Shown: positions 38,128 through 60,321 of the stretch, piece after piece | Layout: every line of letters begins with the position of its first letter | How positions within the stretch are numbered: position 1 is the stretch's first letter | NCBI RefSeq assembly: GCF_964355755.1 | Contig: NC_092672.1 | Location: 17,001,237 to 17,065,236 of the forward strand | DNA length: 64,000 nucleotides | Source of the DNA: Antedon mediterranea | Taxonomy: Eukaryota > Animalia > Echinodermata | Reading direction: 5' to 3' | The notes under the pieces: model-generated | Told to the model about the DNA's origin: nothing | What the model saw: only the letters and a program-made list of their open reading frames with translations | Databases searched by the model: none | Program-made: the position numbers and the translations under genes

Positions 38128-39702
38128 ATGGATCATTGCGATATGGACATGTTTTTAGAAAACCTATTAGCGTTCGATTCAACAGACGACGACATATTAA
38201 AGACGGCAATGTTGGAATTGCAAGACCCGGTCGAACCAGTTTTCATGGAGTACCAACAAGAAGATGATATAGCATCAGAACAACAACCACACCCATCACC
38301 ACCACCACCGACGCCGCAAGAATCAACAAAGGCAAACACGATGATAAATGTTCGAGGCAGTCTCGGTAAACTAATTGCTTTCTGCGATGGATCTGAACAT
38401 ACACTAACGCAATCATACGGTCGAATGATCGGATCTTTGCAAAAGGCAAAAGGACGCATGCACGAGATGCCAATGTTATTGATGTGTACGGACGGTGAAG
38501 AAGAGTACGCGGTTGTTGCAAGTGTTCTGGAATCATCGCGACTTGTCGAATCTACAATTGAAAATCAAGTCATGAGTGTACTTGGAGAAAACAATAGGAA
38601 AACAATAATGCAGCAATACGGTAGGGACAACGTGTTTATGAACGTTTCTTCACGAAATAAAAACTGTGTTGCTGACTTTGTCGGCGCCGATGTATCGACG
38701 ATGCCCGTGCCGATTTTTGACATAATAAATGGCGACGTGAAACGTATTTGTTTCTATATGGCACTCGGCTGTCTCTACAGTCCACAATGCGATGATGATG
38801 TTGCGTCGTCGTCGTCGTCGTCGTCGCCGCCGATGAATGGCGTTCAACTTAGAACTCCAAATGGAGTTGTCTATACGGCCGCCATCATGCCGATAACTGT
38901 AAAACGACGCATGCGACTAGAGTTGACTCTGGATAACGAATTGGACAACGGTAAACTGGAAGAGTTGCAAATTACGGTGACCAACAACAACCGTATATTG
39001 TTATTGCATAAACAAGAAAAAAGAACCTATCACTGCGGTGCGGACATGAAGTATCCCATAACTTTGCACGGTGCCTTTTCCACACCGTGCGCATCGGAGA
39101 AAAAGAATGGTGTTGCCACCGCCATTGCGAATATTGCCAAAACCAATTCAATCAACAAAACACTATTTGCTAGATTTGTTGGACGAGCGATGGAATCACA
39201 TGCAAGCAGTGATTGGACTGCCATAATAAACATTCTTCAGATATCAGATCAAATGACGAAATTAAAAGAAAAATGTGAGTACAAACGAAAACGAATCTTA
39301 AAAGATTCTCTAATAGACAAGTATCCTTCAACAAGAGGTTTTGTTAGTGATGTAAATAATTTACCCTCATCTAACATTGGCATTCAACAACTGATAAGCC
39401 AATTGGAGCAGGCACGCCAAGATTTACGCGAAACAGAGACCAAATTGAGTACTTTACAAACACAATTCAATAACATGTTGATAGAATTCCAAAATCACAT
39501 CACCAAATCGGAAGAAAGAGAAATCAAATATCAACAAGTAATAGAAAATATGCAAAAACGAGAAACCGATATGGTTTCTACGTTTAAAGACAGTTTGCTT
39601 TCGATGGCCGATACTTTGCGTGATGAGATGCGCCAACAACTGACAAAACGAAAGCGTCTTCCTCAATGCGGCAATATTAAGAAAAAACAACGAATCCATT
39701 GA
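38128..39702 (+). CDS. Orphan 524-aa probable nuclear protein (acidic N-terminus, C-terminal coiled coil, basic NLS)
   Basis: Long intronless ORF with first ATG at 38128. It has an acidic/Pro-rich N-terminus, a heptad-like segment QQLISQLEQARQDLRETETKLSTLQ and a C-terminal KRKR...KKKQR. Confidence 0.85.
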   Translation: MDHCDMDMFLENLLAFDSTDDDILKTAMLELQDPVEPVFMEYQQEDDIASEQQPHPSPPPPTPQESTKANTMINVRGSLGKLIAFCDGSEHTLTQSYGRMIGSLQKAKGRMHEMPMLLMCTDGEEEYAVVASVLESSRLVESTIENQVMSVLGENNRKTIMQQYGRDNVFMNVSSRNKNCVADFVGADVSTMPVPIFDIINGDVKRICFYMALGCLYSPQCDDDVASSSSSSSPPMNGVQLRTPNGVVYTAAIMPITVKRRMRLELTLDNELDNGKLEELQITVTNNNRILLLHKQEKRTYHCGADMKYPITLHGAFSTPCASEKKNGVATAIANIAKTNSINKTLFARFVGRAMESHASSDWTAIINILQISDQMTKLKEKCEYKRKRILKDSLIDKYPSTRGFVSDVNNLPSSNIGIQQLISQLEQARQDLRETETKLSTLQTQFNNMLIEFQNHITKSEEREIKYQQVIENMQKRETDMVSTFKDSLLSMADTLRDEMRQQLTKRKRLPQCGNIKKKQRIH

Positions 39703-41050
39703 CTTTAAAAAAAAACAAACATTGTTGTTGTTTTTGTAGTAATTTTGTTGTTGTTAGTAATTTTTTATTGTACAAATCAATGCCGTAATTGTAGTAGTAG
39801 TAATAGTAGTAGTGATAATAATAATAATTAAACGTTTCATTATTTCTATTTATAATTTATTGTACAAATCAATGCAATTTTAACGTTGCGTCTACCTCAA
39901 TATAATAGTAACAACGAATTCATTAAGAAAACTAAAAATTGTAGTGTAGTAATAATCAATTCAATGCCGCAATAAACATTGTAGTAATAGTAGTGATAAT
40001 ACAATTAAACGTTTGAAAGAAAAAAAAAATATTGTGTTTTTTCTCTCTTCCAACGCGATGAAGACGACGACGACAGAATTTTATGTGATTGTGAGAATGT
40101 TGATGAAGAAATAAAGAGAGAGAGAGAGAGACATGGATACGGTTTGCTTAGACACCCATGGATATTGACACCGTCAGTCCAGTCAAAAAATCACCCTCAC
40201 CATGGTATAAGAACGTACCCTAATAAAATTTCATCCGTAGGTTCTATGTATATAGGTAATAACATTTCTTGATGGTTGCGTCTTGCAAAACTTGGGATTT
40301 TACGAGAAAATTAGACTTTTTATACCCAATTTATAACCGCCTCATGTCGTATTATTGTGTACAGCAAATGCGACGAAGCGTGACTGAAATTACGAGACGC
40401 CGTTAGCGCCCGTTGAAAAATGCATTAACAAAGCTAAAAACGTACAAAATTAATAGTTTATACAAAAATTTAAATATAGTTTACAATAAATTGTATAATA
40501 AAATACATAACATTATAAACAAAACCCAATTATAAACTAAAATATTTACAGATATGTGTTTAAAAATGTACAAATCAAAATGGCCTTTCATAGAATAAAG
40601 TGCGCCCTCACGCGTCATACTTTTATCGGACTTGTATGAATGATTATATATATACAAGGCATTAATATACGAAACCCGATGCGGTTTTTGTCATACTTTT
40701 ATCGGACTTGTATGGCCGGATGGTTACACAGTACACGGCATTAATATACGAAACCCGATGCGGTTTGTTAGTTATTGCCTCTGCAAGAGGCAGAATATTA
40801 TTATTATATTTTCACAAATGTATTTATATTTTTTATCATGGAAAAACGGATTGTATATATTTAAACACATTACAACCTCCAGTATACCATCATGATGGAT
40901 TAAGTGTATATTTGTATATCTGCTGAAGCGTAATGATAGATAGTTCCGCTGGTTTTATTTTGGACATTCTTTTTTTTCCACAGCATTAGGCCTACTTGCG
41001 TGAATATCACAATGCATTGCATATTTTGAACTATCATTCGCGATTATAAT
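39541..41050 (+). repeat. ~1.4-kb direct repeat, copy 2
   Basis: Matches 32273..33680. Confidence 0.88.
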
Positions 41051-41529
41051 CTTAATTAGAGTAAGAACCAATTATTTAAGGATAATCCATTTCGCGTAAG
41101 CGCGCCTCCTATACGAAAGATACTACCTCAAGTAGACCTACTTTCACTTTCCAACAATTATTAAGAGCGTATCAAAGGGGCTGGTTGGCATTCGTCTGAA
41201 TCAACATTTTTCATTTTCCCCTTTCACCCGCCGCCACCCACCGCTGCCCACTGCCAATGGGGAGGAGGAGCCGGTTTGATCCTCTCTGAATCCGTCTGGC
41301 CTTCACATCGTACCGATGTGTGAAGTTTGAGCCAATAAACTTCATTCATGACGATTCTTTAAGTTCGAAGTCGTCTTCCAGAATTCAAAGCATTCTAAAG
41401 TTAAAGTGTTTTTCCACTAAATAAAAGAGAGAGTGAGAATGTTGGAGTGTGATGTAAGATTCGCGAGAAACTACATACTGTATTACCCAATTCTCCTTTT
41501 TTAAGTATTAAATACTTTCTAATAATATT

Positions 41530-41671
41530 AAGTCTAATTTTCTCGTAAAATCCCAAGTTTTGCAAGACGCAACATCAAGAAATGTTATTACCTATATACA
41601 TAGAACCTACGGATGAAATTTTATTAGGGTACGTTCTTATACCATGGTGAGGGTGATTTTTTGACTGGACT
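41530..41671 (-). repeat. Inverted copy of a ~140-bp element also present at ~32908, ~35026 and ~40176 (probable host MITE fragment)
   Basis: Reverse complement reads AGTCCAGTCAAAAAATCACCCTCACCATGG...GAGAAAATTAGACTT and carries the GATGTTGCG variant of the 35-kb copy. Confidence 0.85.
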
Positions 41672-41967
41672 AAAATAATCCATTAATCAATAAAAATTAT
41701 GCATTTTTAATTGTTGATTTTATATATGAAGATGATAATAAAATTAAAAGAAATTAAAGTGTAATCTTTATTCGTATTAATAATAATAAATAATAAATAA
41801 CATTTATAAAGCGCAAGAGACTAAGGTTTCATTGTTTAAGGGTGTAAAATCTTCAAAGGCTGTTTTCTAATTGTTGATAATCTATTGAATTCGGAAGTGC
41901 TTTGTTGAATTCGGAAGTGCTTTGTTGAAATCGGGTCATATCTTAATTGCCTTGAAAGAAATTATAA
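41672..41967 (+). repeat. ~300-bp dispersed repeat; second copy at ~49380..50137 is interrupted by a LINE
   Basis: Shared blocks AAAATAATCCATTAATCAA...GTAATCTTTATTCGTATT and CTTCAAAGGCTG...GCCTTGAAAGAAATTATAA. Confidence 0.8.
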
Positions 41968-42577
41968 AGCAAGTTACATTATTTTTTCGAAAGCTTAAAG
42001 AATGGAGATTAATATTATAATAATAATAAAAAAATATTTAATTGTGCTACATGATAGTGTACTTTCTAATTATACAAACCTAACCCTCTAAATAATCTCT
42101 CTCAACTATTGAAAAAAAAAAAATGCATGTCCTTGACACACCTTGAACCGATGGCTGTGTGCAACGTTAAAGTCACTAGACTAAACATTTCGGTTGGCAA
42201 AACATGTTTACACAAGATACTCTATATAGCACACTCTATACTATATGTACATCATTTCTGCAGACAGAAACGTATACCGAACTTGCTATAGTTTTATAGA
42301 AAGATACCTCTTGACAGTAACACTAAATCGTAGTAACAACGAATCCATTGAGAAAACTTAAAATTATATAGTGTAGTAGTAATCAATTCAATGCAGCAAT
42401 AAACATTGTAGTAATAGTACAGTAGTGACAATAAAATTAAACGTTTGAAAGAAAAAAATATATATTGTGTTTTTCTCTCTTTCAACGTGATGACGACGAC
42501 AGAATGTTATGACTATAAATGTGATTGAGAATGTCGAGGGAGGAGAGAGAGAGAGAGAGAGAGAGAGTGAGAAAGAC

Positions 42578-42754
42578 ATGGATTCGTTTGTTTATACACG
42601 CATAAATACTGTATGTTGTATCGTCAGCACTATTTGTTTGCTATTGATTCTGTTATTAATAGCATTGGTCGTACATTACGCGAGAATATTAACAAAAAAA
42701 AAAAGCACCTTCCATTTACAAACCAAACACAGTAAACAAACACTAATTGTATAA
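42578..42754 (+). CDS. Small single-pass membrane protein (58 aa)
   Basis: MDSFVYTRINTVCCIVSTICLLLILLLIALVVHYARILTKKK: hydrophobic span plus basic stop-transfer. It follows a (GA)n tract and ends 9 bp before the next gene. Confidence 0.55.
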   Translation: MDSFVYTRINTVCCIVSTICLLLILLLIALVVHYARILTKKKSTFHLQTKHSKQTLIV

Positions 42755-42763
42755 TAATAAACT

Positions 42764-43150
42764 ATGATTCTAGAAGTCAAAACTATCACTATCACTTTGT
42801 TGACAATCGTATGCATAACGTTGCTACTTGTCTACGTGTCCCGTGGAAGAAATAGCGCATGCAACGAACGGTTGTGTGGCATCAGTGGACGAATGGAGTA
42901 CGATGGTGTATCGAAATATTGCGTGTGTGTAGGCGATGGCGTCTCCGGAGCCGTGTGCAAACAATCGATTCCTAAAACAACAGTAAACTGCACGACGTGT
43001 ACAGCGCATAATGGCCGATGTGTATACTCTGACGCCGCAGACGGTAACTATTGCGTGTGTCCCAACGATCGTTTCGGATTCTCGTGTGAGTATCGGTACG
43101 TCGGTGGTGTATCGGCAGCGATGTTAGCGTACGTTCAGGCTTGTCTCTAA
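42764..43150 (+). CDS. Membrane-anchored or secreted protein with two EGF-like domains
   Basis: N-terminal hydrophobic helix followed by C...C...YCVC.....G..C and C..C....G.C.........YCVCP..RFG..CE, i.e. EGF-type cysteine spacing. Confidence 0.8.
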   Translation: MILEVKTITITLLTIVCITLLLVYVSRGRNSACNERLCGISGRMEYDGVSKYCVCVGDGVSGAVCKQSIPKTTVNCTTCTAHNGRCVYSDAADGNYCVCPNDRFGFSCEYRYVGGVSAAMLAYVQACL

Positions 43151-43191
43151 AAAAAAAAAAAAAAAAAACCACCGCACACACGCACTACACT

Positions 43192-43887
43192 ATGGGCATT
43201 AAACTGGCCTTGTTCGAATGCGCTTATCGATGGTTGCCCATTCAACCGTATTTCTACATATCTATCATACTTTTCATAACGTTCAGTCTCATCAGTTATG
43301 TCATCGTAGCGTCCAGAGCCATCGTCGGCAACGTATGTAAAGTATTGTCCGCTGTAACGAAACAAGTGGAGCGAATCATCATCAGTCAAGCCAAGAAGAA
43401 AAGTTTACGCGTGTACATGCATCAATTCCAGGCTCTGTGGCACACCATCGACGGATGCGAAGCTTTTCAAACTTGGTATCAAGTCGTACGTTACGGATTT
43501 CACAGAACGATGGGATACGTTTTCTGTGACAAAATGCGATGGTTTTACTCGATAACGTTCACTCGTTATCTTGTCTATTATCCAATGAATCTACTCGTAT
43601 GGCAACCGACGCACGGTGACTGCTCCGTCAGTTATCAGGACGATATCTGCTTTGCCTTTCATCTAAATCTAATCTTGGACGTGATTCGGCGATATCTTAT
43701 CATATCCGTCGTGGTTTTGTACAATACTTGGCCTCTCGTCTCTCATTATATGGCCACATTAAAACGCATCTTTAGAACTTTGCATCGAGAAATGTGCTAT
43801 CAGTTGCACAGACTTGATCCCGGCGGTCATTCTTTGACGCGCGGACGCTTTGCAAAACGAATCAAACATTTTTTTCACTTTGATTGA
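43192..43887 (+). CDS. Orphan membrane protein (231 aa)
   Basis: First ATG at 43192 (MGIKLAL); at least two hydrophobic segments; 3' end overlaps the convergent gene by 13 bp. Confidence 0.72.
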   Translation: MGIKLALFECAYRWLPIQPYFYISIILFITFSLISYVIVASRAIVGNVCKVLSAVTKQVERIIISQAKKKSLRVYMHQFQALWHTIDGCEAFQTWYQVVRYGFHRTMGYVFCDKMRWFYSITFTRYLVYYPMNLLVWQPTHGDCSVSYQDDICFAFHLNLILDVIRRYLIISVVVLYNTWPLVSHYMATLKRIFRTLHREMCYQLHRLDPGGHSLTRGRFAKRIKHFFHFD

Positions 43888-44750
43888 TGAAATGAATGAT
43901 CTTCGGCCAGAGCACTTTCAGCCACTTTGCGGTTATGCACGTGCATTCTGGCTCCAGCGCATATTGCGTAGACAGACACGATCGCTACTAAAAACGCTGT
44001 ACAACAGGTAATCAATTCTAGTGTACAATCACAGTCGTCTTCGTGTACAGTACTGGAGCAGCCTAACGACATCCATCGGTCCCAGTCCAATAGTTTGGTG
44101 GCGTTTCTGATGAGTTCCAGTCGAACACACTCTACACGCTCGACGAGCGTAGATCTAGACACTGTCATCGAGCCATACAGTCGATTCAACACAACAGAGC
44201 CACCGACGATCGAGTTTAAACTCACGTTGTGTACCCGCAACGTTTCTTCAGACAACAGCGGTGATACGTGAACGAGTATGGGCGGTGGCGCTGAATCGAT
44301 ATTCATTACATCATCATCATCACCACCACCACCACCACCACCGTGTACACCGAGACGCTCCAATGTAACGTTGTACACGCGTCCGACTCCTGTGAGACGC
44401 AGCGCAGACGACGAACGCGACCAGTTGTTGCATTTAAACGAAAAGTCTTGTACGTGAACGTGATCACCGATCAAAAACGACGTGCAATCATTCGCTGTCA
44501 CTATGATGCCTTTACCGCACAACGGTCGCACAGTCACGTTCGATACAAACACTTCATCATAACTAATACTCTCGAGACTAGAGGAAATGCACGAGGAAAC
44601 GTTTAACGCGTCGTCTGGAATAACAACGTACGTATCGTGTGCATCGTTTCTATAATTTATGTCTTTCAGGTAACCAACCTGCGACGACGTACATAATGAC
44701 TTGTTTGCAATAAACAGAAATAGAATCAGAATTATTTGTTTTTTATTCAT
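43875..44750 (-). CDS. Orphan type I membrane glycoprotein (291 aa)
   Basis: Signal peptide MNKKQIILILFLFIA, several N-x-S/T sequons, a beta-rich ectodomain, C-terminal TM (LITCCTAFLVAIVSVYAICAGA) and a short tail. Its ATG overlaps the upstream gene's stop (ATGA). Confidence 0.8.
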   Translation of the reverse strand: MNKKQIILILFLFIANKSLCTSSQVGYLKDINYRNDAHDTYVVIPDDALNVSSCISSSLESISYDEVFVSNVTVRPLCGKGIIVTANDCTSFLIGDHVHVQDFSFKCNNWSRSSSALRLTGVGRVYNVTLERLGVHGGGGGGGDDDDVMNIDSAPPPILVHVSPLLSEETLRVHNVSLNSIVGGSVVLNRLYGSMTVSRSTLVERVECVRLELIRNATKLLDWDRWMSLGCSSTVHEDDCDCTLELITCCTAFLVAIVSVYAICAGARMHVHNRKVAESALAEDHSFHQSK

Positions 44751-45598
44751 TTCGTTTCTATAACAAATTTAAAGTCGTCGACTGCAGCCAGTTCGTCTTC
44801 GCTAAAATTACAATTTCTCAACACTAACGTCACATGCTCCTTGTCAAACACACTTGACAATTGTATCGGAGATACGTCCATACATTCGATACACACCGTC
44901 ATCGGATAAGCGCTCGGCCGCATATCATTACCAAACGTCAGCCTGTTGCACCTTACAAGTCGAACGTCTTTCAAACCTCCTCCTCCTCCTCCTCCTCCTG
45001 CACCTCCTACATTTGTCATCAACGTAGATAAAAAACTGTCGACGATCGGCACATCTATCAAAGTTAAACGTTGCAGAGATTGTATGCAGAGTACACTTTC
45101 AGCAAACGTTCTTCCCATCGTGGCACGTTGTCGTTCGCGTATTGCCGCGATCAAAATCTCGTCTGGATCGTGCTCGACTGCTTCACTCACAAAACGTACA
45201 ATAGACCGCAAATCCATTTTCTGATCCTCTACGTTGTTGTGCATACGTTGCAAAATCTGAGCAATACACTTGCGTCTTCGACTCGCGCAAGTGCATTCGT
45301 TACAATATTTCCTGTCAATACGTACTACAGTCACGACGCATTTCTGACACGAAGACACCTTGCAATTTGCGCATCTATACATCATTTTACATGTATCGCA
45401 TGCTTTTGCGCCGCAGTGTATACAATTCTGTAGCAAGAATCGAGTGCACTTTCGACAACGATCCGTTTTCTCATCACCGTATATCAAGTCGTTCCAAACT
45501 TTTGAAATATTCGACGTACACAGTCGGCGTGTCGGATCATCTTTTAGACAATCGCGTATACTCAGGCATACCTCTAACGGTACCTTGATCATTGTCAT
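44747..45598 (-). CDS. F-box protein with CxxC-rich zinc-binding region and degenerate LRR-like C-terminus
   Basis: VPLEVCLSIRDCL...LCTSNISKVWNDLI fits the F-box consensus; six CxxC pairs; LQRLTL...LKDVRLVRCNRLT resembles LRRs. First ATG at 45598. Confidence 0.7.
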   Translation of the reverse strand: MTMIKVPLEVCLSIRDCLKDDPTRRLCTSNISKVWNDLIYGDEKTDRCRKCTRFLLQNCIHCGAKACDTCKMMYRCANCKVSSCQKCVVTVVRIDRKYCNECTCASRRRKCIAQILQRMHNNVEDQKMDLRSIVRFVSEAVEHDPDEILIAAIRERQRATMGRTFAESVLCIQSLQRLTLIDVPIVDSFLSTLMTNVGGAGGGGGGGGLKDVRLVRCNRLTFGNDMRPSAYPMTVCIECMDVSPIQLSSVFDKEHVTLVLRNCNFSEDELAAVDDFKFVIETK

Positions 45599-45817
45599 GT
45601 CGCGTGGACGCGTTGAAAACACGTTTATAACATCAACACAACGATATCATCATCATCATCATCACTTTTACGCACACATTAAAAAAACAAACAACAAATT
45701 AACGTTTCGATTCTTTATTATCATCATCTCAGAAACAAAAATTTAATGCTAGTACGTACTGCGCATATATAAACGAAATAAATTCATAAGATTTTTTTAT
45801 TTATTTATTTTTTTTTT

Positions 45818-46744
45818 TCAAATCTCAATATCCCATAGAATGTTCAACAGTGCTTCACTGCAGTCTCTGAAATAATAACTCAAATGATCATGTTCTGCAC
45901 TGGCCATTTTCATATCTAAGCACACGTCATAACAATCTCGGACGTCTTCGTAACTGTTTGCTGCCAACAATTTGTGTTTAAGCATACAAATGTCCGTTCT
46001 GATAGCGCTGTAGCCGCCGTCGTAAGCTTCTCTCTCTACTGATACTGACTGAGCATTGTAACTGACGAGGGCATTCTGAATAAAGTTCATCAAGTCTCCC
46101 ACGTACATTGACTGTCGAAGACTTATCACTTCTCCAAACGTTGATGCCTTGTTGTACTCTGGATACTGATACACGCCTAAACATATGTTGAGCAACGTGT
46201 CCAATTCGTAGCCTACCAAACCAAACATTTTTGTATCGTTCGGGAACATCGATCGTGCTTCCTGCAACAGTCGCACACATCTCGTCAACTTTGACAACGA
46301 GTTGCAATTGTTCAGCTTAGCGTGAAGATTGTTCACGTACACGTACAAATCTGACATTATCGGTAACGGTTGAGTATACGGGTAGTTGTAGTCGATATTG
46401 CAGTACTTGAACGCAGTTGATAGCCAATTTCGTATATCTTCTTTACTCATTTTCTTTCGTTCATCAATTTTTCTATGAAACATATCTTCGAAATTATCTA
46501 TAGGATATTGGACGGAATAACTATCGATTATAACGTTCCTGTTCTTCATGATCGGGTCGTAGTCGTCGAGTATACGCATGCTATCTTCACATCGCATTTC
46601 TAGTCTACGCGACGTCGGATTTATGTTCCACTGAAGCATTATACGCTCTTTTGCATCGCCGTACGTAAGTGCATGGTCTTCGATGTACCACGTTGAATCG
46701 TTGTTAAATCTGTAAGCAAATCTATGGTCATCGTTTGACATCAT
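45818..46744 (-). CDS. Protein with an N-terminal DWNN (RBBP6-type ubiquitin-like) domain and an orphan helical C-terminus
   Basis: YRF...LTYGDAKERIM...LEMRCEDS...DDYDPIMKNRNVII parallels RBBP6 DWNN as recalled (YKF...ISLCDLKKQIM...LQITNAQT...DDNALIPKNSSVIV). No zinc knuckle or RING follows. Confidence 0.68.
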   Translation of the reverse strand: MMSNDDHRFAYRFNNDSTWYIEDHALTYGDAKERIMLQWNINPTSRRLEMRCEDSMRILDDYDPIMKNRNVIIDSYSVQYPIDNFEDMFHRKIDERKKMSKEDIRNWLSTAFKYCNIDYNYPYTQPLPIMSDLYVYVNNLHAKLNNCNSLSKLTRCVRLLQEARSMFPNDTKMFGLVGYELDTLLNICLGVYQYPEYNKASTFGEVISLRQSMYVGDLMNFIQNALVSYNAQSVSVEREAYDGGYSAIRTDICMLKHKLLAANSYEDVRDCYDVCLDMKMASAEHDHLSYYFRDCSEALLNILWDIEI

Positions 46745-46847
46745 CGTGAATGAAAATGAAAATATGGAATCGTAATCAGTTCCTTTTAACCATTAACAAG
46801 ACACATACAGAGAGAGAGAGAGAGAGAGAGACACGCACAGCGCGACG

Positions 46848-47885
46848 ATGACAAAGGCTCTCAACTTCAACACCGATTGGTTTATTGTAGGCAACGAGAA
46901 TGCGACGGGTGGTGTTGGTGAAACACTACGAGATGAATTTAATAATACCGATTGGACGAGTTGGAAGGTGATGAAGACGGATGATGAAGCAGCAGCAGCA
47001 GCAGCAGCAACACGTCTACCCGTTCTACAACATTCAAAATCAAATAAACGAATACAGCTTAACAAAATGACGGTACAAGGCAGACGATTACTCCAACCGC
47101 ACGTACATCCCAATCAATGGATATTAATAGATGTTGACACTTTGATATGTTACCACGATGAAGACAGAACGACGTTTCTCACTACACATCGTTTACCTGC
47201 AAGCGCGTACACGCAGCTGTCGTGTAACAATCCTGATCGGATACGCTTCGGTCATGCATCGATCGCGGCCCGGAAATGCTGGAAACAAAACACAAAGATT
47301 CCGTACGCGGCTATCCCGATTCGATACATGGATCGCGACACCACGTTCGATATACGCGATGCGAGTACACTCTTCTACAAGGTTCTCTTGACCGACAGTC
47401 CACAATACAAATCTCCAGAATCGTATTACAGAGCGTTGGTGCAACGTGATAAACAGCCACCGTGGACTGTCGAAGTCAGACAATACATACTGAACATACC
47501 GCTTCCTCCTCCCGCGCCAGATATCGAATACTTCGAAGCCATCATGCGCTCAGTTGATTTCAGAACGAGCGTTAGAAACAAACGATTACCGTTACAATCC
47601 GGTGAATCGGCCTCTTTTTTGCGCGCCGAGCCCATTGTAATAGATAAACACGGTGACAAGTTTGCTCTTCGACCGGCCGACGTCATGACGCCCACCGCAT
47701 ATCGTGAATTCTACTCACAAGTTGGATGGACTAACGCGCACGACTTTGAAAAATGTATACAGTCCGTTTACAGATTCATGCATTGTCCCGTTGTCAGAAG
47801 AAATCTGTCGAACGGAGAAGTTGAATTCACGATTCTCATTCCTCTGCCGCCGCCTTCTCCTCGTTCTCCCTCCTCTGTGTCATGA
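46848..47885 (+). CDS. Orphan 345-aa protein
   Basis: Long intronless ORF with an ATG after a (GA)n tract, 103 bp from the divergent gene; no family recognised. Confidence 0.8.
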   Translation: MTKALNFNTDWFIVGNENATGGVGETLRDEFNNTDWTSWKVMKTDDEAAAAAAATRLPVLQHSKSNKRIQLNKMTVQGRRLLQPHVHPNQWILIDVDTLICYHDEDRTTFLTTHRLPASAYTQLSCNNPDRIRFGHASIAARKCWKQNTKIPYAAIPIRYMDRDTTFDIRDASTLFYKVLLTDSPQYKSPESYYRALVQRDKQPPWTVEVRQYILNIPLPPPAPDIEYFEAIMRSVDFRTSVRNKRLPLQSGESASFLRAEPIVIDKHGDKFALRPADVMTPTAYREFYSQVGWTNAHDFEKCIQSVYRFMHCPVVRRNLSNGEVEFTILIPLPPPSPRSPSSVS

Positions 47886-47939
47886 TGATGAGCACATGAA
47901 CGTATTTCGCGCACGAAACGACACAGCAGCACAGAGACG

Positions 47940-48965
47940 ATGAAAGAGTACACTGTTTGTTCGTTGATCACAACATGTTTCGCTACGTCTATTGTAATCG
48001 ACGTACTGTTACAGACAAACGTTCATCCGATAATCGATTGGCACGCCATCTTTCTACCCGTTTGCCTCTACGCCATATTCGTACACGCTGCATCGACAAC
48101 AAAACTCATATCGGCGTTTCGATTGAGCATGTGCGCGGCTGCAAACATATCGTTTCTGTCCAATATGAAATTTCTGATCGGACCGTGCGGTGTATCCTAT
48201 CGAGATCCGATGCAAGAGTGCGGTGCTCACGGAACTGATGCACGTTGTCATCGCGCCATGACGGACGCTCTTCGATGGCAAGCCGATCAACGACGTTGTC
48301 CCATGGTAGAGTTGGGGACAGCTGCCGGTTCCATTTACTACACTGTACAAATGTTGCTTGTCTATCTGCCCACCGGTATTCTGCCGGTAATGCTACACAT
48401 AACCGATCGTTCAAAAGGAAATCAAGTTCTAGACTGCTGGACGTGGTACATGTTCGTTGGACTGCCTATAGTCGTTGCCACGCTACTGGTGGACGTTCTA
48501 GCCGGAGCCGTTGTATATCCACTTTGTTCTGAGCACGTAGTGTACGCGTTCCTGTCTGCCGCCATGATGTCCAGATACTCATCGTTGGAACGCATATGGG
48601 AGGCGGTTTCATTGACGTCGGTGGCTATGACAATCCTGGATCTGATACGCAACGTTTTTATCTATAAACTCGGTCCATGTATGTTTGACGGTCGTGAACT
48701 GTTCAAATGTGATGAGCTCGATAGCTGCTATCAGAATCTACTCGATTTGAGCGCACACAAACTAGATTCATCAGACTGTCCGATCAACAAAGTAGGTCGA
48801 CACTGGGCATTCGCTCTCATGATTTCGCATCTGATCAGATTCTTCACCATAGTCTTTATTCAATGCTTTATGCTGATGCATAAACGTCATTTTCTGAGAA
48901 AAGGCGATGCCGATGGAGAGGAGGATGATGAAGATGTTCTGTTCACTAAAGAACGGAAAGTTTGA
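47940..48965 (+). CDS. Orphan multi-pass membrane protein (341 aa)
   Basis: About 6-8 hydrophobic segments with Cys-containing loops and an acidic C-tail. Confidence 0.8.
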   Translation: MKEYTVCSLITTCFATSIVIDVLLQTNVHPIIDWHAIFLPVCLYAIFVHAASTTKLISAFRLSMCAAANISFLSNMKFLIGPCGVSYRDPMQECGAHGTDARCHRAMTDALRWQADQRRCPMVELGTAAGSIYYTVQMLLVYLPTGILPVMLHITDRSKGNQVLDCWTWYMFVGLPIVVATLLVDVLAGAVVYPLCSEHVVYAFLSAAMMSRYSSLERIWEAVSLTSVAMTILDLIRNVFIYKLGPCMFDGRELFKCDELDSCYQNLLDLSAHKLDSSDCPINKVGRHWAFALMISHLIRFFTIVFIQCFMLMHKRHFLRKGDADGEEDDEDVLFTKERKV

Positions 48966-49488
48966 TGATACGACAAAGGCAAATACAAAAAAAAAAATGT
49001 CTTTACATTGCGTGTTTTTTTTTTGTTTCTATTTGGGTCGCGTCACCACGAAAGGAGCTTTGTGTCGCAAAAGCTATATTGCTATAATTAGCTGACGCTT
49101 TAAATGCTGGCCTTCTTGCTATTGCTGACGATACGGCCCTGTTCATCGACTAGCTAGGCTTACATACATTCAGGATTTTTTTTTTTTTACTCGGTGAGGG
49201 GCTGAAGAAAATGGGGTAAGTGAAAATGAGGATGAGGATACTAAAGACTGGATGGGAGATAGACGAAGATTCTGACGGCGAGGATAGTTATTGAAAACGA
49301 AGAAGAATGTGTAAGAATTTGTATAGGCCTAATCATGATCTAAGAGTAGAAGTGAGTTATGTTAACAGATTGTGTGCTCAAAATAATCCATTAATCAACA
49401 TAATTATGCAATTTTTAATGGTTGATTTTATATATGAAGATGATAATAAAATTGAAAGAAATTAAAGTGTAATCTTTATTCGTATTCA

Positions 49489-49930
49489 TTTATTTTCATT
49501 TCATTTATTCCACATTTATTTAGTCATCAACTACAGTACATCATAATTACAGTACAACTGAGAACAGGGATCCTGCATAAAAAAGCTATAGCTTCGTTTT
49601 TTTGTAGGACCCTTTTACATAAGAACAAGTATATAGAACTTAAATAAACAAAGGTGTTGTTAATCAGCATATAGTGATAAAAAGTATTTTTTAACCTGTT
49701 TTTTTATACATTTATTTTGTTTCTTTAAGATAACCGGTTTATTACCACCATTACAAGTGAATTCTTTCCACAATTTTGGTCCATATATGTGTATAAACTG
49801 TTGACTGCAAGTTAGTCTTGTGAAGGGAATTTCGAATTCAGTTTCTGTTCTGAGGTTATGAGTAGGCCTAATACTGTCACAGTAATTAAGAATATTTAAA
49901 ATGTGATGTGGTAATTCATTGAATTCATTG
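49489..49930 (-). mobile_element. 3' remnant of a CR1/L2-like LINE
   Basis: Minus strand encodes YGPKLW (conserved ORF2 C-terminal motif), followed by a 3' stem-loop and a (GAAAT/AAAT)n tail; it interrupts the repeat shared with 41672..41967. Confidence 0.7.
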
Positions 49931-50293
49931 TTTAAGTGTGTAAAATTTAATGTAGATCCATTAATAATGACTAATGGTATTCAAGGCGAATGTGTTGTGG
50001 ATATTGAATAGAACCAAAGTACCGGTAATTGTCCACTGAACTTCAAAGGCTGTTTTTTAATTGTTGATAATCTATTGAATTCGGAAGTAATCTATTGAAT
50101 TCGGGTCGTATCTTAATTGCCTTGAAAGAAATTATAATTTCAACACAAGGCTCCGTTTGTTATGACACGAGCCATTTATTCTTCAGCCTTTGAATCAAAT
50201 TACATGTATTATTATTATTATATATTTTTTTTAAAAAGTATGAAGATTAAAAGTTATCGTTAATGTACAGCGTCGAGTGCACATGCGTGCGTG

Positions 50294-50866
50294 ATGTTGA
50301 AGCTAAGAGGATTGATTTTCGACGTATTTATTGTTTTATTCGTTGTAAGTGTTCCATGGAATTGGTTATTATTGTACAGAGAGAGAGTGGCGGTTAATCG
50401 GGCCGAGATGACACAGCTTGTCAACAAATGTGAAAAGCAACAGAGACGAATCACAGAGAATGCTGATACGATGAATGTGTTTGTGTCGTGGTTGCGAACA
50501 AATATCTTTATAGAAGAAAGAGACGAATGTACCGAATATCACAGAAACTATGTAGTACATCCGATCCTGTCCGTTTCGCCGGTTGAAGCGTTTGCCAAGA
50601 CCGTTTCTAGCTTGATAGAAATTCCTGCTCGGGCACTTGGAAAGGCAATGTCTGACTTTAACTTGAATTTCATAGGCAGAATTCCAATTTCAATCTGGAT
50701 TCCTGCCCTATTAACATGGTCTTCTATGCTCATAGCTACAGTTACGTTCGTCTATTTACTCTGTCTAAAGTACAGTCGTCCAAACACCGTATTCGTTACT
50801 GCACTGTCCACGAAGAAATGTTGGTCGTCGCGAAACGGTAAACATCGGTTAAAAGTACACTCGTAA
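50294..50866 (+). CDS. CLCC1: CLCC1/MCLC-like (chloride channel CLIC-like 1) membrane protein, intronless, core domain only (190 aa)
   Basis: FVVSVPWNWLLLY...C...SWLR...DECTEYH...VHPILSVSPVEAFAKTVSSLIEIPARALGKAMSDF...IPISIWIP matches the CLCC1 core as recalled (SxPWNWxxLY; DxCxxYY..LLVxPxxxVPPxxA; EPLKHxGxxxxEF). Confidence 0.85.
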   Translation: MLKLRGLIFDVFIVLFVVSVPWNWLLLYRERVAVNRAEMTQLVNKCEKQQRRITENADTMNVFVSWLRTNIFIEERDECTEYHRNYVVHPILSVSPVEAFAKTVSSLIEIPARALGKAMSDFNLNFIGRIPISIWIPALLTWSSMLIATVTFVYLLCLKYSRPNTVFVTALSTKKCWSSRNGKHRLKVHS

Positions 50867-51288
50867 AGCTTTGTCACTCTGAAACGTTGAATACTTTTCA
50901 CACCACACCCACCACTATCAAGAAGTGTTTTGTGTATACACACACACGATATTAAAGTCTAATTTTTTTTTATAAACTATTATTTTACCATGCACAAATA
51001 ATATAGTATTCTCTGGATAATAAGTTCTCGAGCCGTGAAGAAACGGTACAAATATGTAATGCTCGCTTTCTACACTATACCGTTTCGATTTTATCAAGAA
51101 GCGAACAATATTATTTGTATACACACACTCACACACACGTACACAAGATAGTAAACTTGTTTACTCTTCTGACTTTTTGTGTGATTGCGCCCTCTGTATA
51201 TTTTTTATTATTTACCCATACACAAATGATTTTCACGGCTCCCATGATAATGAACAAGTCAGGCACCCTCAGTGTAAGCAGATAACGT

Positions 51289-52090
51289 CAAAGAATATTA
51301 TATCACAAGAATGAGAAATCCGTGATTTTCCATGTAACAGTAATTTGTCCATGTGGTAGGGGGCCGCCATAAGTGAGGATGTATCTGGGATGTATACAAC
51401 TTTTCATGATAAAAAAATGTTATCAACTAGATGCCAACATTATGTTAAATGCTATTTGGATATTTAATTGTTCGTTTTATGCAATTTATTTAGTAAAAAC
51501 TGCCGTATAAACAGTTTGCTTTATCAACCGGGCGCTACGATAGCGTGACCGGGCGTGTTGGTGTTTACGCGTTTTCACGAAGGATAGTTTAATAATATTC
51601 CTATATTTAACTTGTTTCTGGTAAAACAAATACATGTTAATGACATTTAACATTTTATCCTATTAATAACATGTATTTTATACTAATTTGTATCATAAAA
51701 ACAATACTTAATTTACCGGGCGTAGAGTACTACGCGGCAATGATAAGAATAGACCGTGCTGAGTAAGGATTCGTTGATTTTTGGTGTTGCTGTGTTAGGC
51801 CTTTTTTTGTGAACGAATTTAGCATGTTAGTAAATAATTGTCTGTAAATAAAGTGAATGTACACTAGTTTTTTTAATAAATATGTATTATAAAATATATT
51901 ACAATTGCAAAATATATTATCATAATTCTATTTAATGTGACATGTATAATACGGTATCTATTAAATCAAGTCTTATTTAGTATGTATACATCCCCCCTTA
52001 TGAGGGCGGACATCACTCTCTGGAGCTCTCTGTTACAAATATCTCATGAAAAAATCGCGGAATACTCATTCTTGTGATATATATTCTTTG
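51289..52090. mobile_element. Non-autonomous DNA transposon (P-element-like MITE), ~45-bp TIRs, 7-bp TSD ATAACGT
   Basis: Left end CAAAGAATATTATATCACAAGAATGAG, right end CTCATTCTTGTGATATATATTCTTTG; ATAACGT at 51282-51288 and 52091-52097. Confidence 0.85.
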
Positions 52091-53047
52091 ATAACGTTTA
52101 CTGAACCGCGCGGAAGATTTTTTCGAGCGGGCGGTATCAAACAATCATTTATTTAATGTGTTTTCAATAGTTAAAAGATAACACTTATTTTATGTAAAAT
52201 ATTATTACGCCCTTAATGTATTACTTTTTAGCTATATCTATTTTAAAATGTAATATTGATTATAACGTGGAATACATTTGCACTTTGGTGCAATTGTATT
52301 CGACAATTAAAGTTTATATGTAACCGGTTTTCTGTGCATGTCTTCGAATAGAGTTTTTATCCGCATTCAGTAGTCGTCCTAAATTCTGCACACAGGATGA
52401 CAGAGCCATGAACACACACACACACGCACGCGCACACGCACCCACACACAAGAAATGAATAAATAAAAAGAAACAAACGTGATGTAACTTTTTAAATTTT
52501 TTTATTTGTTAAAACGATTTCCGAGTTAACGACATTTAAATTCATAAACAATAAATACAGTACAATAATATATTGAAATTCTATCAATAAATAAAACATT
52601 AAACAAACTGAAATTTCAGTCAACCGTGATGCTGTATGTACATAACAATATGCACCACTAGCAGCAGATATTACAAAAGTATGGATTCACGTACAACGAA
52701 CTAGGTTAACATCCACAAACAAATATATTATACATATGTATATTTTTCCTGCTTTATAACTAACCATTTCTGCTTTGTACCCCAAAGCGTTTGGAAGTGT
52801 GCCTTTATAACTATGCCTTTTCATATTTGATGATTTTCTTCACCTGATGATCGGCTATGCCCGAAACATAAACTTATATATTGAGGCAGTTTTAACTGAT
52901 TTGATCTTGATTTTTTTTTTCTATGTCCTGCCTATGATTTAGGTCTATAGGCCTATATATATTTAGTTAAAAATTTATACTTGTACAACTAATGATGAAA
53001 GGTATTATTTAATTAAACCAACAAAAGACAAATTATTGACAATGAAA

Positions 53048-55594
53048 CTATTTTCTTTTCAATACGCGCATGACAGTACCACTAGAAAAAACCGTTATAT
53101 CAAAAATGTTATTTTTGAATGGTAGAGTTGTCTCCACCATTCCTAAATTTTCGCTGCAGATAGTAAATACGTCATTGACGTAATCTTCAAAGAATAGATT
53201 TTGGAACACAATAACGCGTTTGCATCTATTCAAATACCTCATTATGGTTTGTTTGTCTTTTGTTGGCTTCATTCTGATATACGTGAAGCCATTCCATTTT
53301 AATATATCTGCTACTTTTGCCGTGTCACTGTTATGTACAGCAGAGCACGACGAAGCTATCAGGTAGTCTATATTGCTGTTGTTGTCGTTTTCGGAATCAA
53401 AGGCGTACGTTTCCTTAAAAGGCAGAAGTGTGCTTTGCCTGTGAAAGAAAACATGACGTAAATAAAAAATAATGATTTTCGGGTTTTTGGGGAGCATTTT
53501 CCTGCATGAACAAGAATAATAGTTGGTGAACCTACCATGAAAACACGCCTCTGGTTCGTTGAGGGCGTTTACAACGACCCGTCGAATGTAACGGTTGTTG
53601 CTGTGTTGATTCTATATGAAATCAAATATATATAATATTATATTATAACAATCATATGAGCAGCGTTAAATAGTATCGTTCGCCAACAATGCATTTACTT
53701 TAATTTACCTTTGTCCACGGTTTCTTCTTCTTTCGGGTTGAACGGGTGCTCTTCCGAGGGAACTCTTACGAATGTACTATGAATAAATTATATATATGTA
53801 TATATGAATCGAATAAATAAACAAAAATGTAATGTCAAGAGAAGAAAAAATACTTACGGCATTATTGGTATTCTTGTTACTGAAATTATAAAAAAAAAAA
53901 GAAGAAAAACTGGTTTTATTATACAACTAATAGTACGTGGTGCTGGTGCTAGTTTGCAACCAATTAAAACATATACAAGGCTTCTCGGAGAAGGATTTAC
54001 TACTGGATGTGTTCAGGGTACACATCTGATTCGTGCCCTCTTTGAATATTTATTTATGCCAATGAGCATCAAGTTTTTCAGTATGAATCATATCTATCTA
54101 AATATCTATATTATAAGTAAGAGACAAACAAACAAACAGACAGACGTACAAACTCTCTCACTTATAATATAGATATATAACGTTAGTATTGTATTTACCT
54201 TTAACACTATCTTTCCATTGTGAAACATTCTGAACTGATGTTCGTTGTACTAAAACCAAATTTAAAAAAAAAAAAAAAGTTGACAAACCACAATCATTGT
54301 CATTATGCGCTGCATAACACGGTAAAAAGGGTTACTAATTGGATACATGCAAACAAGCTATCACTAAATATGCTAAAAAACAATTTTATGTTGTTTAGTA
54401 ACAAATAATATAGTATGTTACCAAAAGATATTATTTTCAACAATGTTCCTATTAATCAAATAACCAACACAAAATTTCTTGGTATATTTATTGACGACAG
54501 ACTTGACTGGAAAGCCCATGTTAATTACCTTTGCAAATTATTATCAAAAAAAATGTTGGCATGATGTATAAATTGAAATCAATATTTCCTCAAAAAGTAT
54601 TAAATATTTTATATTCTACTCTTATTTTATCGTACTTAAATTATGGTGTTCTTGCTTGGGGAAATGCTTCAAAATCAATTATTACTAAAATTTTATTAAT
54701 CCAGAAACGAGCTGTCAGAATTATCTCAGGGGTAATTTTTCGTGCTCACACCCAAGATCTCTTTCAAAAAAAAAATAAAATATTAAAAATTGAGGATCTC
54801 TATAGATTTAATGTTGGTGTCATCATGTTTCAATTAACCGCCCGACACCTATAATATCCAGTAAATTCACTTAAAATAAACAATACCACACTCACCAAAC
54901 AAGACAAAAAGATTAGTATCACCTGCCATTTACTCGAACTAAAATGAATACCCTTGTATACACTGGACCTAAACTCTGGAATTCTCTTCCTTTATCTCTT
55001 AAAAAAATCTCATAACTGTGCTTTATTTAAACGTCAATTTAAACTATTATTGGTTGAAGGTTCTTTGTAAATTCTTTTATTATTGATGTATTTGATATTT
55101 CTTAAATAATTTATATAATCTATTTTTTACTTGTTTTTTTTTTTAGTTTTAAACATGTTAAACTTATGTGTTAGAGAAAAGATATTAGTTTAATTGTTGT
55201 TATTTTTTTTTTGGAGTTTCTAATTGTGTTATAATATTATTTCTATTTTATTTGTTTTGTTTTGAGGAGCCTATTCACAACAAGCTTTGCTTTCTTTTAG
55301 GCTCCTCCACTTTATATTTATATATTTGTAAAGTGAAATAAATAAATGAAATGAAATGAAAAGATATATTACAATATTCTTGATAATATCGAATCATGCC
55401 CTTGTAAAACTATGGTAACATTATTTCTTCTTGATAAAACAAAAACAACAAAACTAGTGACACTATAGAAATAATATTACGTTGCTAAATCAAACAATAC
55501 ACATTTATGAATTACCTTCAACATCGTCAGTCCACCACGGAGTCATCCACATTGTATGTTCTTGCACTTTACACTTAGCTGTTTGCTGAGACAT
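53048..55594 (-). CDS. Six-exon orphan gene, 228 aa: complement(join(53048..53438,53536..53611,53709..53776,53858..53879,54199..54249,55516..55594))
   Basis: All five introns are GT..AG with pyrimidine-rich acceptors. Exon lengths 79+51+22+68+76+391=687 nt splice in phase from ATG to stop with no internal stop (MSQQTAKCKVQEHTMWMTPWW...SWQSTLLPFKETYAFD...RVLKRK). Confidence 0.78.
54104..54174. repeat. 71-bp hairpin/mini-MITE in intron 2
   Basis: ATCTATATTATAAGT...ACTTATAATATAGAT inverted arms around an (ACAA/ACAG)n core. Confidence 0.65.
54320..55361 (+). mobile_element. Decayed 5'-truncated CR1/L2-like LINE inside intron 1 of the six-exon gene
   Basis: Frameshifted RT C-terminus (WIHANKLSLN, KFLGIFID, LYSTLILSYLNYGVLAWG, QKRAVRII, GPKLWN), 3' hairpin GAGGAGCCT..AGGCTCCTC and (GAAAT)n tail. 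Confidence 0.88.
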
Positions 55595-55901: not shown

Positions 55902-55908
55902 TATATAA
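55902..55908 (+). promoter_or_regulatory. Putative TATA box of the helicase gene
   Basis: TATATAA ~55 bp upstream of ATG 55962. Confidence 0.45.
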
Positions 55909-55961: not shown

Positions 55962-58900
55962 ATGAGTAAATCTGAGAGTACAGCCGATGATCTACTGCCA
56001 TGTGAATTATGGCCGGGCAGTCGAATTACGGACGATATTGTGTTTGGTGAACCCATGCACATCATGTGCGTCGAGTTGAAATCGTTTGAAATACCGACAA
56101 ACTCGCTGCGCAATTGCTCCCCGCATACGTACATAATGATGATGGTGTTGTTGAGAAAAGCGTTACAGTTGCACTGCAACGATGAACAGCACGCACTGGT
56201 GTGCTCTCTTATTGAACCTAGTCGCATCGTGGATGAAACGGTTCGGGGTAAGGTGTCGTGCGGTTACGTGTTCTGGTTGATCTTCCCACGACGTTTGCAC
56301 AAAATGTTACAGTACGTTGTCAAGTCCATACTGTTGATAAACAACGGATACCTGCCAGCATGGGACACAACATTCTTGACAGACGTCCGATGCGAAATGT
56401 TTTCCGACAACGATCTTGATGATGATGATGATGATGATGACGACGATGATGATGATAATGAACCGAAACGTAAAAAGACAAAACGTAAACGAAACGATTC
56501 AGCAACGGCGACAATAAAATATGCATTTAAACATTTCGATTGCCGATTGGGTCGTGGAACGTCGCAAATGAAACGAACCAAGATAAATAGCTATGTTCCA
56601 CACGTGACAGTGCTCGGGGATTTTGAAAGAAGCATTGAAAAATATTTCTGTTTAGACATACCGAAAATCGAAGGCAATCGATTGCCCCCGACTGTTAGAG
56701 AACAAGATACAGCAGAGGCGTGGCAAAAGCGCGCAGATCTGTTTACACCAAAGACTCTTTTTTCGTCATCTAGACGTGCAACTCATCGACGTGAGCTGAC
56801 ACGTTTGATTGCAAATGAATCGAGTAATGCGCTAACTCTCGATCAGTTGATGACAATTGCCGACAAAGAATTGAATCTACCTCCGACTCTTAAACTGTCT
56901 TTGCAACAGATTGATCCGAGAGTTATAATGAACGAAGGCGATAGTCGTTGTGTAAGCTTCCAACATATGAAAGCGTGGATATTGGAACCTCACATGTACG
57001 AGGCGAATTATTTTTTGAAAAGACACTTTCCTGCACTTGAAAGTGATACGAACATTGGTAATACAAAATTGTTTGTTCACGCTATGCGCGATGATGCAGC
57101 GCAATTGGACGAAGACAAAATTTCGGCAATCGGAAAACTGTATGTAACCAACCAGAATCAGAACGAAGTGACCATAGACTCGAGGTACGTATTTTATAAT
57201 CATCATCATCATCATCATCATCATCACCACAACACAAATTGTAGTGTGCGTGTTTTACTTTTGATTTATAATTGTTTTCGTTTTGTTTTTTGTTTTTTTT
57301 TTTTTTCTTAATAGGCATTTATACGGTGAAAAATACACGGCAAAGAATCCGGGCATAGTGATGATGAGAAAGATTTTTCACAATTTGCAATTGACTCCGG
57401 AAAGATACCGTGACAAGACTGTCGGCAAAATTTTCTTTGACATGTACACGCAAGTGCATATGGGAAGACACGTGCAAATGAGCGAAGTAATAACGCAATC
57501 GTATGCCGATATGTGGGATACCGAGATGAAGGGTTGGTGTATGAACGCGTCTAGACACAGTGACGGCAGTTTTGTTCCATTCGTATACGAAGAGGAAACT
57601 GACGTGAAAATATCGATAGGTTATCGATATCTTTTGAACATGGTGGCTCTGATAGGTAATGTGGCCGGTGTGTCTAACGCTAAAGGTGAACTTTTGTACA
57701 TTTTACTGTCGGCTATACGTATCGTATGCCCACACGATGCGATGGCCATGCACGCCATTCTGGTTGGACCTCCCGGTACGGGTAAAACGTCTGTGATGGT
57801 AGCCGCTAAATCTGTAATCGGTAACGCTTACTCAGACGACGTTACTTACCGAACACAGAAAGCCGTGCTCGTCGATAATGAGCGAAAGTACAAAAATTCA
57901 AAAAAAATACGCTTCATGAACGAATTTGTGCCACCGTCGTCTGGATCTAAAAGCGATAAGAATCCGTTGTCAATTGAAAGCAGTCAAGAAGCGGCAATAA
58001 TGAAAGAGGAACTCGATTCCGGCTGTACGCGCACCGAACGAACCGAGAAGGTAACGGATCCGAACACGGGAACCACTCGACACGGTGTTCGAACCGTAAT
58101 CAACGTTTGCGATAATGCCACCATAATGGCCATGAACGAAAAAAACTTGTGTAACTCGTTAAACGAACGAGTTGTCACTTTTGACGTGGCACCCAGTGGT
58201 GTTGTCAACGTGCCCAAGAAAATGGAGGGATACGAGAAGGAATTGGATCGTTTAAAAATTCGAACGCAATTCGGCGCTCTGCGCCACAAAGTAATGGAAC
58301 ATGTACGGTTGGCAGAGTGCGGTCTGTATCCACGTCGATCGGAAGGAGATTCGTACAAAGACGATCGTATGCTACTGTTGACTTGCGATAGAATATCTGT
58401 CGAATTGGAAAGGCAAGGAGTCCGATTCGGATTCGCCACAGAAACTAGAACCATCAATAAACTCATCGACCTGGCACGTTTGTGCGCCTTTCACAATGCA
58501 GTGATTCAAGTGAACGGCTGTCCGTTACAAAGTCTGCACGCCAATACACCTCGATTACCGAACGAGAACACTTGTTGTCTCAATTCAAGAATCATAGCCA
58601 AACATCAACGGTGGCTGATGCAACAGGACATGAAGCGACTACACGACATGGTAATGTCCGAGGCGCAGCCGGATCCTGCTGATATTTTGTTTGCATTTTC
58701 GTTAATGTGTCCGATGCCACAGAACGAACTGATAATCGTGAGAACGATAGCGGATCAGTTGATTGATCCTTCTCATGATCCCGTTCATCGAGATGGTGAA
58801 ACTTACTTTGAATTGACGTGCAGGAGCGAAGAGGCGCTTCTGTCCATTTTAGAGCGCAAAACGGGTGTTGCTCGCAAACAATGTAAGGAAATATTGTTGG

Positions 58901-60321
58901 CTATGCACAGTGGACGGAGTAAGTTGTTTCGAAAAATGGACGATAACGGACAAAAACAGCTTCTGTTCAAATGTAGCGAGGCAACGGAAGCTCATCTTTC
59001 GTCACATGCAAACGAGTACCGTGAAATATCGGACGTGATGATGGCAGGAATGTGCAATGCAAAACAGTACAGGGGAAAACATTACATATACGTTATGCTC
59101 AATGGAAAACTTACACAAGCCGCACGCTTCTTGTCTCATTTGCCCGTCTTCGCTCGACATATGTACTGGGGCCAGTCAAACTCTCAAGATCCCAAATCCA
59201 GCATCAATTATCTAGGATCGGTGCCGAAAAAGTTTACCAACGAAGAAAGATACTGGATAAAAATAAATTTAGATTTTCACGAGACCCGACTGGCGTACGT
59301 TAGGAAACTCGCAATCCAATCGTGTGTGACTGGAGACTGCGACGAAAACGGATCAATTGCGGTCGGTGTTGACGTGAAAGAGATTGCCGACAGTTTAAGG
59401 GTGTTGAAATGCAGATCATATGACGGTAGCAGAGATAGACTACCGATGCCACCGCCGGTGATGAACAACGATCACACGTGCAGATTGGTATTGGAAACGT
59501 CGAACGCTCGAGCCTTTATGGTACACGTTAGCGTCTTTTTGCCACAACATAGACGTTTGAAAAAAATACTCGAATTGTGCACAAAGGTTGTGCTCGAAGA
59601 TAAAAACGCGTGCCGAGGTAATCGAATACGCGTTCTGGTAAATGACGAGTTCGAGGCGGATGAGCTGAGAAACGGTGTGAATTTGCTAACAAACGACTTG
59701 AGACACTTGATCAATTCTTCTTCGATCATCTCGGAAACACCACCACCGAACGTATTCTTTCACGTAAATCTGTTGACGTTGAATTCATTGGAAGACGCGT
59801 GTAAGCATTACAAAGTGAAAGCCGGCGAATCAATGATCAAGAGTGTATTGGAAAAGTGCGTGTTTAAAAATATGACTGAACGTAAAACCATCATGTACGT
59901 GGATCGTAGTACAAGAGATGTGTTTCAGACGTTAGACATTCAGCAATTGGCCGAAAAGAACGGCGGTAGTCTACCGGTACACAAGTGTAAAAATCCGTAT
60001 CTGACACAAACGCTTCGAAATCCAACAACCGAGGTAGTAGATCGTGATAGATTAAGATTCAAGTTAGAAGAACCGCAATTTCTTGAAGCCGAACCGTCGC
60101 ACGTTCAACGACGAAAAGCATGGATTAGAATGTTGTCCGATGGTACGGAGATTAAACTGAGAGAACGATTTGGACACGACGTGGACACTTATTTACGCCA
60201 CATAAGACTCGTAGAAGATGCAATTATAGAAAAGGACAAACTGCACGCATTCAGACCACTGGTTTACAAGACTGGTGAAAAGAAACTTTCACCGTGTACG
60301 TGCTCAAAACAAACGTTATGA
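55962..60321 (+). CDS. Large spliced MCM-like AAA+ ATPase/helicase, join(55962..57184,57315..60321), 1409 aa
   Basis: A 130-bp GTACGT...TTCTTAATAG intron joins the two long ORFs in frame (IDSR|HLYGEK). Motifs: Walker A ILVGPPGTGKT, Walker B IRFMNEF, AIMKEELDSG, sensor-1 TIMAMN, Arg finger SLNER, sensor-2-like ETRTINKLIDLA, in MCM order; NLS PKRKKTKRKR. Confidence 0.85.

Follow-up and report, generated by a model that had tools for sequence, protein, structure and literature searches.

An MCM-like ATPase gene, predicted to be spliced, in an apparently endogenised herpes-like element of Antedon mediterranea

Near the end of a 64,000-nt stretch of the Antedon mediterranea genome (NC_092672.1, positions 17,001,237 to 17,065,236; the whole stretch is called the window below), two open reading frames (ORFs) lie on the forward strand in different frames, ORF A at 55962-57311 (449 aa) and ORF B at 57265-60321 (1018 aa, stop to stop). 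The locus raises the question of whether the two encode one protein, and, if so, what kind of ATPase this is and where it came from. ORF A and ORF B are likely exons of one gene, with splicing predicted from the sequence. The product is probably an ATP-driven ring motor, and probably an origin-loading helicase, of an endogenised herpes-like virus, its DNA activity, ring form, and orthology to the alloherpesvirus protein Allo56 being read from predicted folds.

The predicted gene consists of three parts:

55962..57184, forward strand: exon 1, 407 codons plus 2 nt; an alpha/beta domain at the N-terminus, a low-complexity acidic linker, and a helical region, common to all clades of the family
57185..57314, forward strand: predicted 130-nt GT-AG intron; (CAT)n microsatellite and poly-T tract, of a length that varies between copies
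57315..60321, forward strand: exon 2, 1001 full codons; MCM-like AAA+ module, winged helix, and a conserved C-terminal region of ~440 aa

The 57185-57314 segment starts with the donor GTACGT and carries a long T tract and TAATAG at its acceptor end, and the exons sum to 1223 + 3007 nt, or 1409 codons plus a stop. Eleven frame-keeping GT/AG pairs were found near the junction, only three of which end at 57314, where the acceptor has the long T tract, and donor 57185 is the only one of these three that keeps a conserved LY motif with a sensible spacer. The 57185/57314 pair gives an LY-to-KNP spacer of 23 residues, compared to 18-20 in six of the ten homologues examined (of the remaining four, one was mis-assigned by the script, one is without LY, and two are off-pattern), while a competing pair with weak signals, 57189/57345, gives a spacer of 14. 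In tblastn searches, all three homologues tested (P0001, P0002, and P0003) matched ORF A and then ORF B in order; residues 1-400 of P0002 align to ORF A, and residues 406-1417 to ORF B. Because intronless homologues of ~1350-1750 aa cover both halves in order, the two ORFs are taken as one gene, in agreement with the original prediction that they are fused through a canonical intron into a 1409-aa protein.

It is very improbable that the window copy is instead a dead, frameshifted gene with a low-complexity insertion, although no spliced read or contig joining 57184 to 57315 was found in the runs searched (none of them on record as RNA), all database homologues are intronless as called, and the copy in run X8 is decaying. 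Removing the segment at its canonical donor and acceptor brings the two ORFs exactly into frame, neither exon is interrupted by a stop over 4.2 kb, and the segment measures 130, 94, and 96 nt in different copies, while the shared exon differences are mostly synonymous. Single contigs of runs X5 and X8 span both exons, with 92 and 94 letters at the intron position compared to the window's 128, indicating that the segment behaves as a non-coding segment would. Run X8, which was guessed to be RNA, retains the segment at the intron position, and is thus silent on expression. Seven runs from organisms A and B hold at least half of the gene's words, and two more, from A and C, hold 39%. Among the 40 of 179 rows of the difference table that were listed, 35 differences fall in exon 2. 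Twelve of them are common to several runs, and 11 of these are synonymous, compared to 22% expected, whereas the 23 that are private to X8 comprise 5 synonymous changes, 15 non-synonymous changes, and 3 stops; the X8 copy also has a 171-nt deletion in window 58659-58831. These differences indicate that the gene has been under purifying selection, and that the X8 copy is decaying. A TATA-like TATATAA is seen at 55902-55908, ~55 nt 5′ of the ATG, and an AATAAA at 60473-60478, ~150 nt 3′ of the stop, either of which may be a chance match.

The ATPase region of exon 2 has the following predicted features, the motifs being named by analogy to the MCM order and not by residue-level superposition:

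57490..58725, forward strand: MCM-fold AAA+ ATPase
57766-57789, forward strand: Walker A, GPPGTGKT, in the ATPase module
57913-57927, forward strand: Walker B, FMNEF, with the Walker B Glu at 57922
58039, 58135, 58168, and 58447, forward strand: putative hairpin Arg, sensor-1 Asn, Arg finger, and sensor-2 Arg, in that order
58711..59004, forward strand: winged-helix domain, which follows the ATPase immediately, as it does in MCM

Both Walker motifs are present as claimed originally. Across 22 family members, the Walker B Glu, the sensor-1 Asn, and the sensor-2-like Arg are kept in all 22, and the Walker A Lys and the Arg finger in 21, the exception in both cases being P0025. Immediately before the Walker B Glu, 8 members have N, 8 have E, 3 have S, 2 have P, and 1 has G, and none has D, so that the family pattern is hh(N/E/S/P/G)E and never the DE of the IDEF-type MCM motif. 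The catalytic Glu is intact in sequence, and the "NE" of the window protein, first noted as a peculiarity, is one variant of a family trait. A Walker B motif without Asp also occurs in SF3-type viral helicases.

MCM was the nearest match to the predicted AAA+ fold, down to the displaced lid that carries the sensor-2 Arg, and a C-terminal winged helix follows. The structure matches of the model support the placement, proposed at the outset, in the MCM clade (superfamily 6, SF6; pre-sensor-II insert) of AAA+ proteins, rather than among superfamily 3 (SF3) helicases or packaging ATPases. An SF3 helicase of the D5/P143/T-antigen kind was considered and rejected, as the SF3 fold was not the best match and the sensor-2 lid is present; the SF3 viral helicases (poxvirus D5/E5, African swine fever virus C962R, and baculovirus P143) have the AAA+ core in common with the window protein, and gave weak Foldseek matches (E 1e-4 to 1e-3). 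Within the same clade, a non-helicase remodeller of the MoxR/RavA or chelatase type might act on viral proteins, for example, capsid or transcription complexes. This is quite improbable, since MCMs outranked such proteins in the structure matches, and the family has a long conserved beta-hairpin with a near-invariant Arg (21 of 22 members) together with the winged helix. Two further points count against a remodeller: the linkage to a B-family DNA polymerase (PolB) gene at a second locus, L001 (see below), and the neighbours found in the ESM Atlas, which are replication-type proteins of plasmids and phages (PF27228, score 0.92; a lead only). Exon 1 drew ESM Atlas matches to Plavaka and Transposase_21 clusters at 0.88-0.90 with low recognition, which were set aside as noise.

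Structural alignments to MCM begin at model residue ~450 (400-411 in two rows), and the N-terminal tier of MCM (A-domain, zinc finger, and OB) is absent from the aligned ranges, the N-terminal region having been searched as part of the whole model. No MCM Pfam match was found in the window protein or in the family members scanned, and scans of Pfam, PHROG, and NCBIfam, as well as sequence searches of the PDB, returned Walker-A-level matches only (RFC and generic AAA). The lack of an MCM Pfam match, and of the N-terminal tier in the alignments, bears out the suggestion of a viral rather than a cellular origin. Compared to archaeal and eukaryotic MCM, including MCM8/9, the window protein has an unrelated N-terminal region of ~460 aa and an extra C-terminal region of ~440 aa, and identity is 10-15%. 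Compared to Cch of SCCmec and the MCM-like helicases of the DUF3987/DUF927 type from phages and mobile elements, it is much larger and is encoded by a eukaryote-type gene predicted to be spliced, and a primase domain was not detected. None of the solved structures listed as matches covers the N-terminal ~450 or the last ~440 residues; as both regions were folded within a larger model, this does not amount to evidence of a new fold.

Relatives were gathered by word-seeded searches and one full HMMER search, in which 24 of the 30 matches belong to the family; the other six (P0028, P0029, and P0031-P0034) were excluded as unrelated multi-AAA proteins. Full-length members are single large proteins of ~1200-1750 aa, alignable from the N-terminal domain to the C-terminus. 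None of the 15 homologue clusters looked up has an informative name, no named alloherpesvirus protein is among them, and no relative was found in the viral_contigs scans, in one of two metagenome scans, or in phage records. A quick tree of 24 rows resolved three deep groups, and placed the window protein as sister to P0001, with a long-branch warning. The winged helix and the greater part of the C-terminal region are missing from P0025 and P0026; P0025, in which Walker A and the Arg finger are degenerate too, is possibly an inactive paralogue.

The origin of the protein was approached through predicted viral structures, against which a 994-residue model gave four matches far above the rest. 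The best was Ranid herpesvirus 2 ORF111 (E 3.5e-20, TMq 0.59, 1105 columns), which, from its fold, is presumably a member of the Allo56 family. The four also include "Protein Allo56" of Lake sturgeon herpesvirus (A0A9E9GU37; E 2.3e-14, but TMq of only 0.28) and two unnamed entries. A Ranid herpesvirus 4 protein ranked sixth, and phage and giant-virus primase-helicases came next, at 1e-6 or weaker. The same four accessions ranked first when the window protein's own model was used. The window protein is therefore predicted, from these models, to be a distant relative of Allo56. The flanks had been called unrecognisable and novel; novelty is not supported, given the match to Allo56-type proteins over the length of the 994-residue model, and, with a winged helix behind the ATPase and an N-terminal part shared with those proteins, "unrecognisable" holds only in part.

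Allo56 (the family of ORF56 of Ictalurid herpesvirus 1) has been described as a core protein of the herpesviruses of fish and frogs, of unknown function as of 2025, encoded back-to-back with the DNA polymerase (PMC12567609). All 40 of the alloherpesvirus genomes surveyed have it (PMC10410580); the Allo56 gene of AciHV-3 is 4383 bp (PMC12031113). Its size (~1200-1460 aa) is similar to that of the window protein, to which it provides the best whole-length predicted fold. At L001, the one family locus examined for its neighbours, the distant family member P0067 is likewise back-to-back with a PolB gene. The window gene differs in its predicted intron and its position among host repeats, and its host is apparently not one known for fish or frog viruses. 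The excerpts of PMC7544198, PMC10871703, PMC5601938, and PMC10175614 give no function for ORF56, and AAA, MCM, and Allo56 are unmentioned in the main text of a 2026 structure-based annotation of SalHV-1 (PMC13030845), the supplements of which may annotate the SalHV-1 orthologue. No link between Allo56 and MCM was found in the literature searched, which mostly excluded subscription papers; one may already have been published, or deposited in a structure database. Nimavirus wsv026 ("AAA ATPase") was considered as a relative, and nothing linked it.

A gene for a CLCC1 homologue is also found in the window, as context for a herpes-like element:

50294..50866, forward strand: CLCC1/MCLC homologue, short core only (Pfam PF05934, E 2.9e-16)

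CLCC1 has been captured three times by allo- and malacoherpesviruses, some of which carry viral CLCC1 (PMC12639132), and the window homologue may be a further capture.

Several results weigh against the herpesvirus connection. Among the HMMER matches looked up, no sequence-level link to named alloherpesviruses was seen, and identity is only 11-14%; no capsid, terminase, or polymerase was recognised in the window; and no further gene is common to the window and L001. Genes for an HK97 capsid, terminase, triplex, or protease were recognised neither in the window nor in the 25 kb of L001. Upstream of the window gene, no polymerase was found, and a LINE-like (long interspersed nuclear element) fragment and repeats are there instead. 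One possibility is an MCM-like helicase from a large DNA virus outside the herpesviruses, or from a giant mobile element, with a likeness to Allo56 that reflects only a common domain architecture or gene exchange. The missing sequence link and the unseen herpes capsid and terminase favour this, as do an ORF of L001 that resembles a tyrosine recombinase by eye (no Pfam match), and the position of several members on short contigs of ~9.4 kb. It is nevertheless improbable, as the structural match covers the whole 994-residue model (TMq 0.59 and 0.52) and is ~14 orders of magnitude better than the best match to a named phage or archaeal virus (2.7e-6), and as a herpesvirus is in keeping with the length of the protein, the synteny with the polymerase, and the neighbouring CLCC1 gene. 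We give a little better than an even chance to the proposal that Allo56 is an MCM-type ring helicase/initiator, and that the window derives from a wide, undescribed alloherpes-like group that keeps the pair of polymerase and MCM motor, has at least three deep clades, and is in part endogenised in animal genomes.

The recombinase-like ORF lies at 18150-21143 of L001 on the forward strand, near the PolB/ATPase pair, and may be the integrase of a herpes-like element; a RING/TRAF zinc-finger ORF lies near the same pair at 24649-25185, also on the forward strand. In three source collections, 6 of the 15 listed members of the P0024 cluster sit on contigs 9382-9461 nt long, which may be a discrete small replicon, a segment, or a transcript. 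Other members are carried on longer contigs, of 176 kb (P0067), 67 kb (P0018), 52 kb (P0017), and 40 kb (P0002).

It is moderately probable that the ~1409-aa product forms an Allo56-related MCM-type ring, which would use ATP to load onto viral DNA and unwind it for the B-family polymerase that the virus itself encodes. Such a ring would be a homohexamer or homo-oligomer with ATP sites between subunits, and the long conserved beta-hairpin would grip and move DNA in its pore. The large N-terminal domain, in place of the OB/zinc tier of MCM, may recognise the viral origin, and, together with the winged helix, may allow the ring to load itself there, like the staphylococcal Cch helicase, and to serve the viral PolB. 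The single-subunit replicative helicase/initiator suggested at the outset is a role that we infer. The main rival is an Allo56-like MCM-fold ring motor for recombination-dependent replication or branch migration, as in MCM8/9 and ComM, with a separate superfamily 1 helicase-primase at the fork, because a Pif1-like helicase and a primase are encoded by alloherpesviruses as well (PMC13030845). This division of labour seems unlikely; the linkage to the polymerase gene and the winged helix fit a replication helicase/initiator equally well or better.

An Allo56-like fold around an MCM-type motor indicates that viruses of this kind likely carry a ring DNA helicase of a type reported missing from viruses of eukaryotes, the models being the basis for this reading. 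SF6 helicases were not found in eukaryotic viruses in a 2016 survey (PMC4889955), and a major branch of the Herpesvirales would, if the reading is true, replicate with a motor of that class. If the fold link holds, it would also place an MCM-type motor in animal viruses, provide a testable function for Allo56, a long-standing unknown, and perhaps explain how replication is initiated in alloherpesviruses, which do without several of the replication proteins of orthoherpesviruses. The unnamed relatives, at least 24 in number, suggest that a group of large DNA viruses awaits classification. The gene had been put forward as the best phylogenetic marker for the element; the family gives a resolved quick tree, but Allo56 failed all six single-gene tree tests and was unfit as a single-gene marker (PMC10410580).

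The window copy lies among host repeats and appears to be endogenised. Positions 1-32274 hold ~30 kb of a 19-bp satellite with a CT-rich unit, inside which is a LINE-type reverse-transcriptase ORF (2882-4483, reverse strand, 533 aa; Pfam RVT_1, E 4e-31). Between the satellite and the gene lies a cluster of ORFs:

38128..53497, strand not assigned: about nine further compact orphan ORFs (38128, 42764, 43192, 43875, 44747, 45818, 46848, 47940, and 53048), interleaved with high-copy repeats

None of these belongs to a significant Pfam or PHROG family, and the two searched against PDB sequences gave no match; the cluster is probably the rest of the endogenised virus segment. In the read runs, the ORF regions are at modest depth and some spacers at thousands (depth is not equal to copy number), a pattern that fits viral genes interleaved with host repeats. 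By eye, the ORFs include an EGF-like membrane protein (42764), a protein with a signal peptide and a C-terminal membrane anchor (43875), a protein rich in Cys (44747), and one that spans the membrane several times (47940). Near-identical segmental repeats occur throughout 32273-42600 (for example, 32273-32572 equals 39541-39840; also 33007, 35124, and 40275), and the ORF of 524 aa at 38128-39702 shares its 3′ end with one copy. Directly downstream of the ATPase gene, 60682-64000 consists of a 44-bp tandem array, followed by a unit of ~0.9 kb repeated at least three times.
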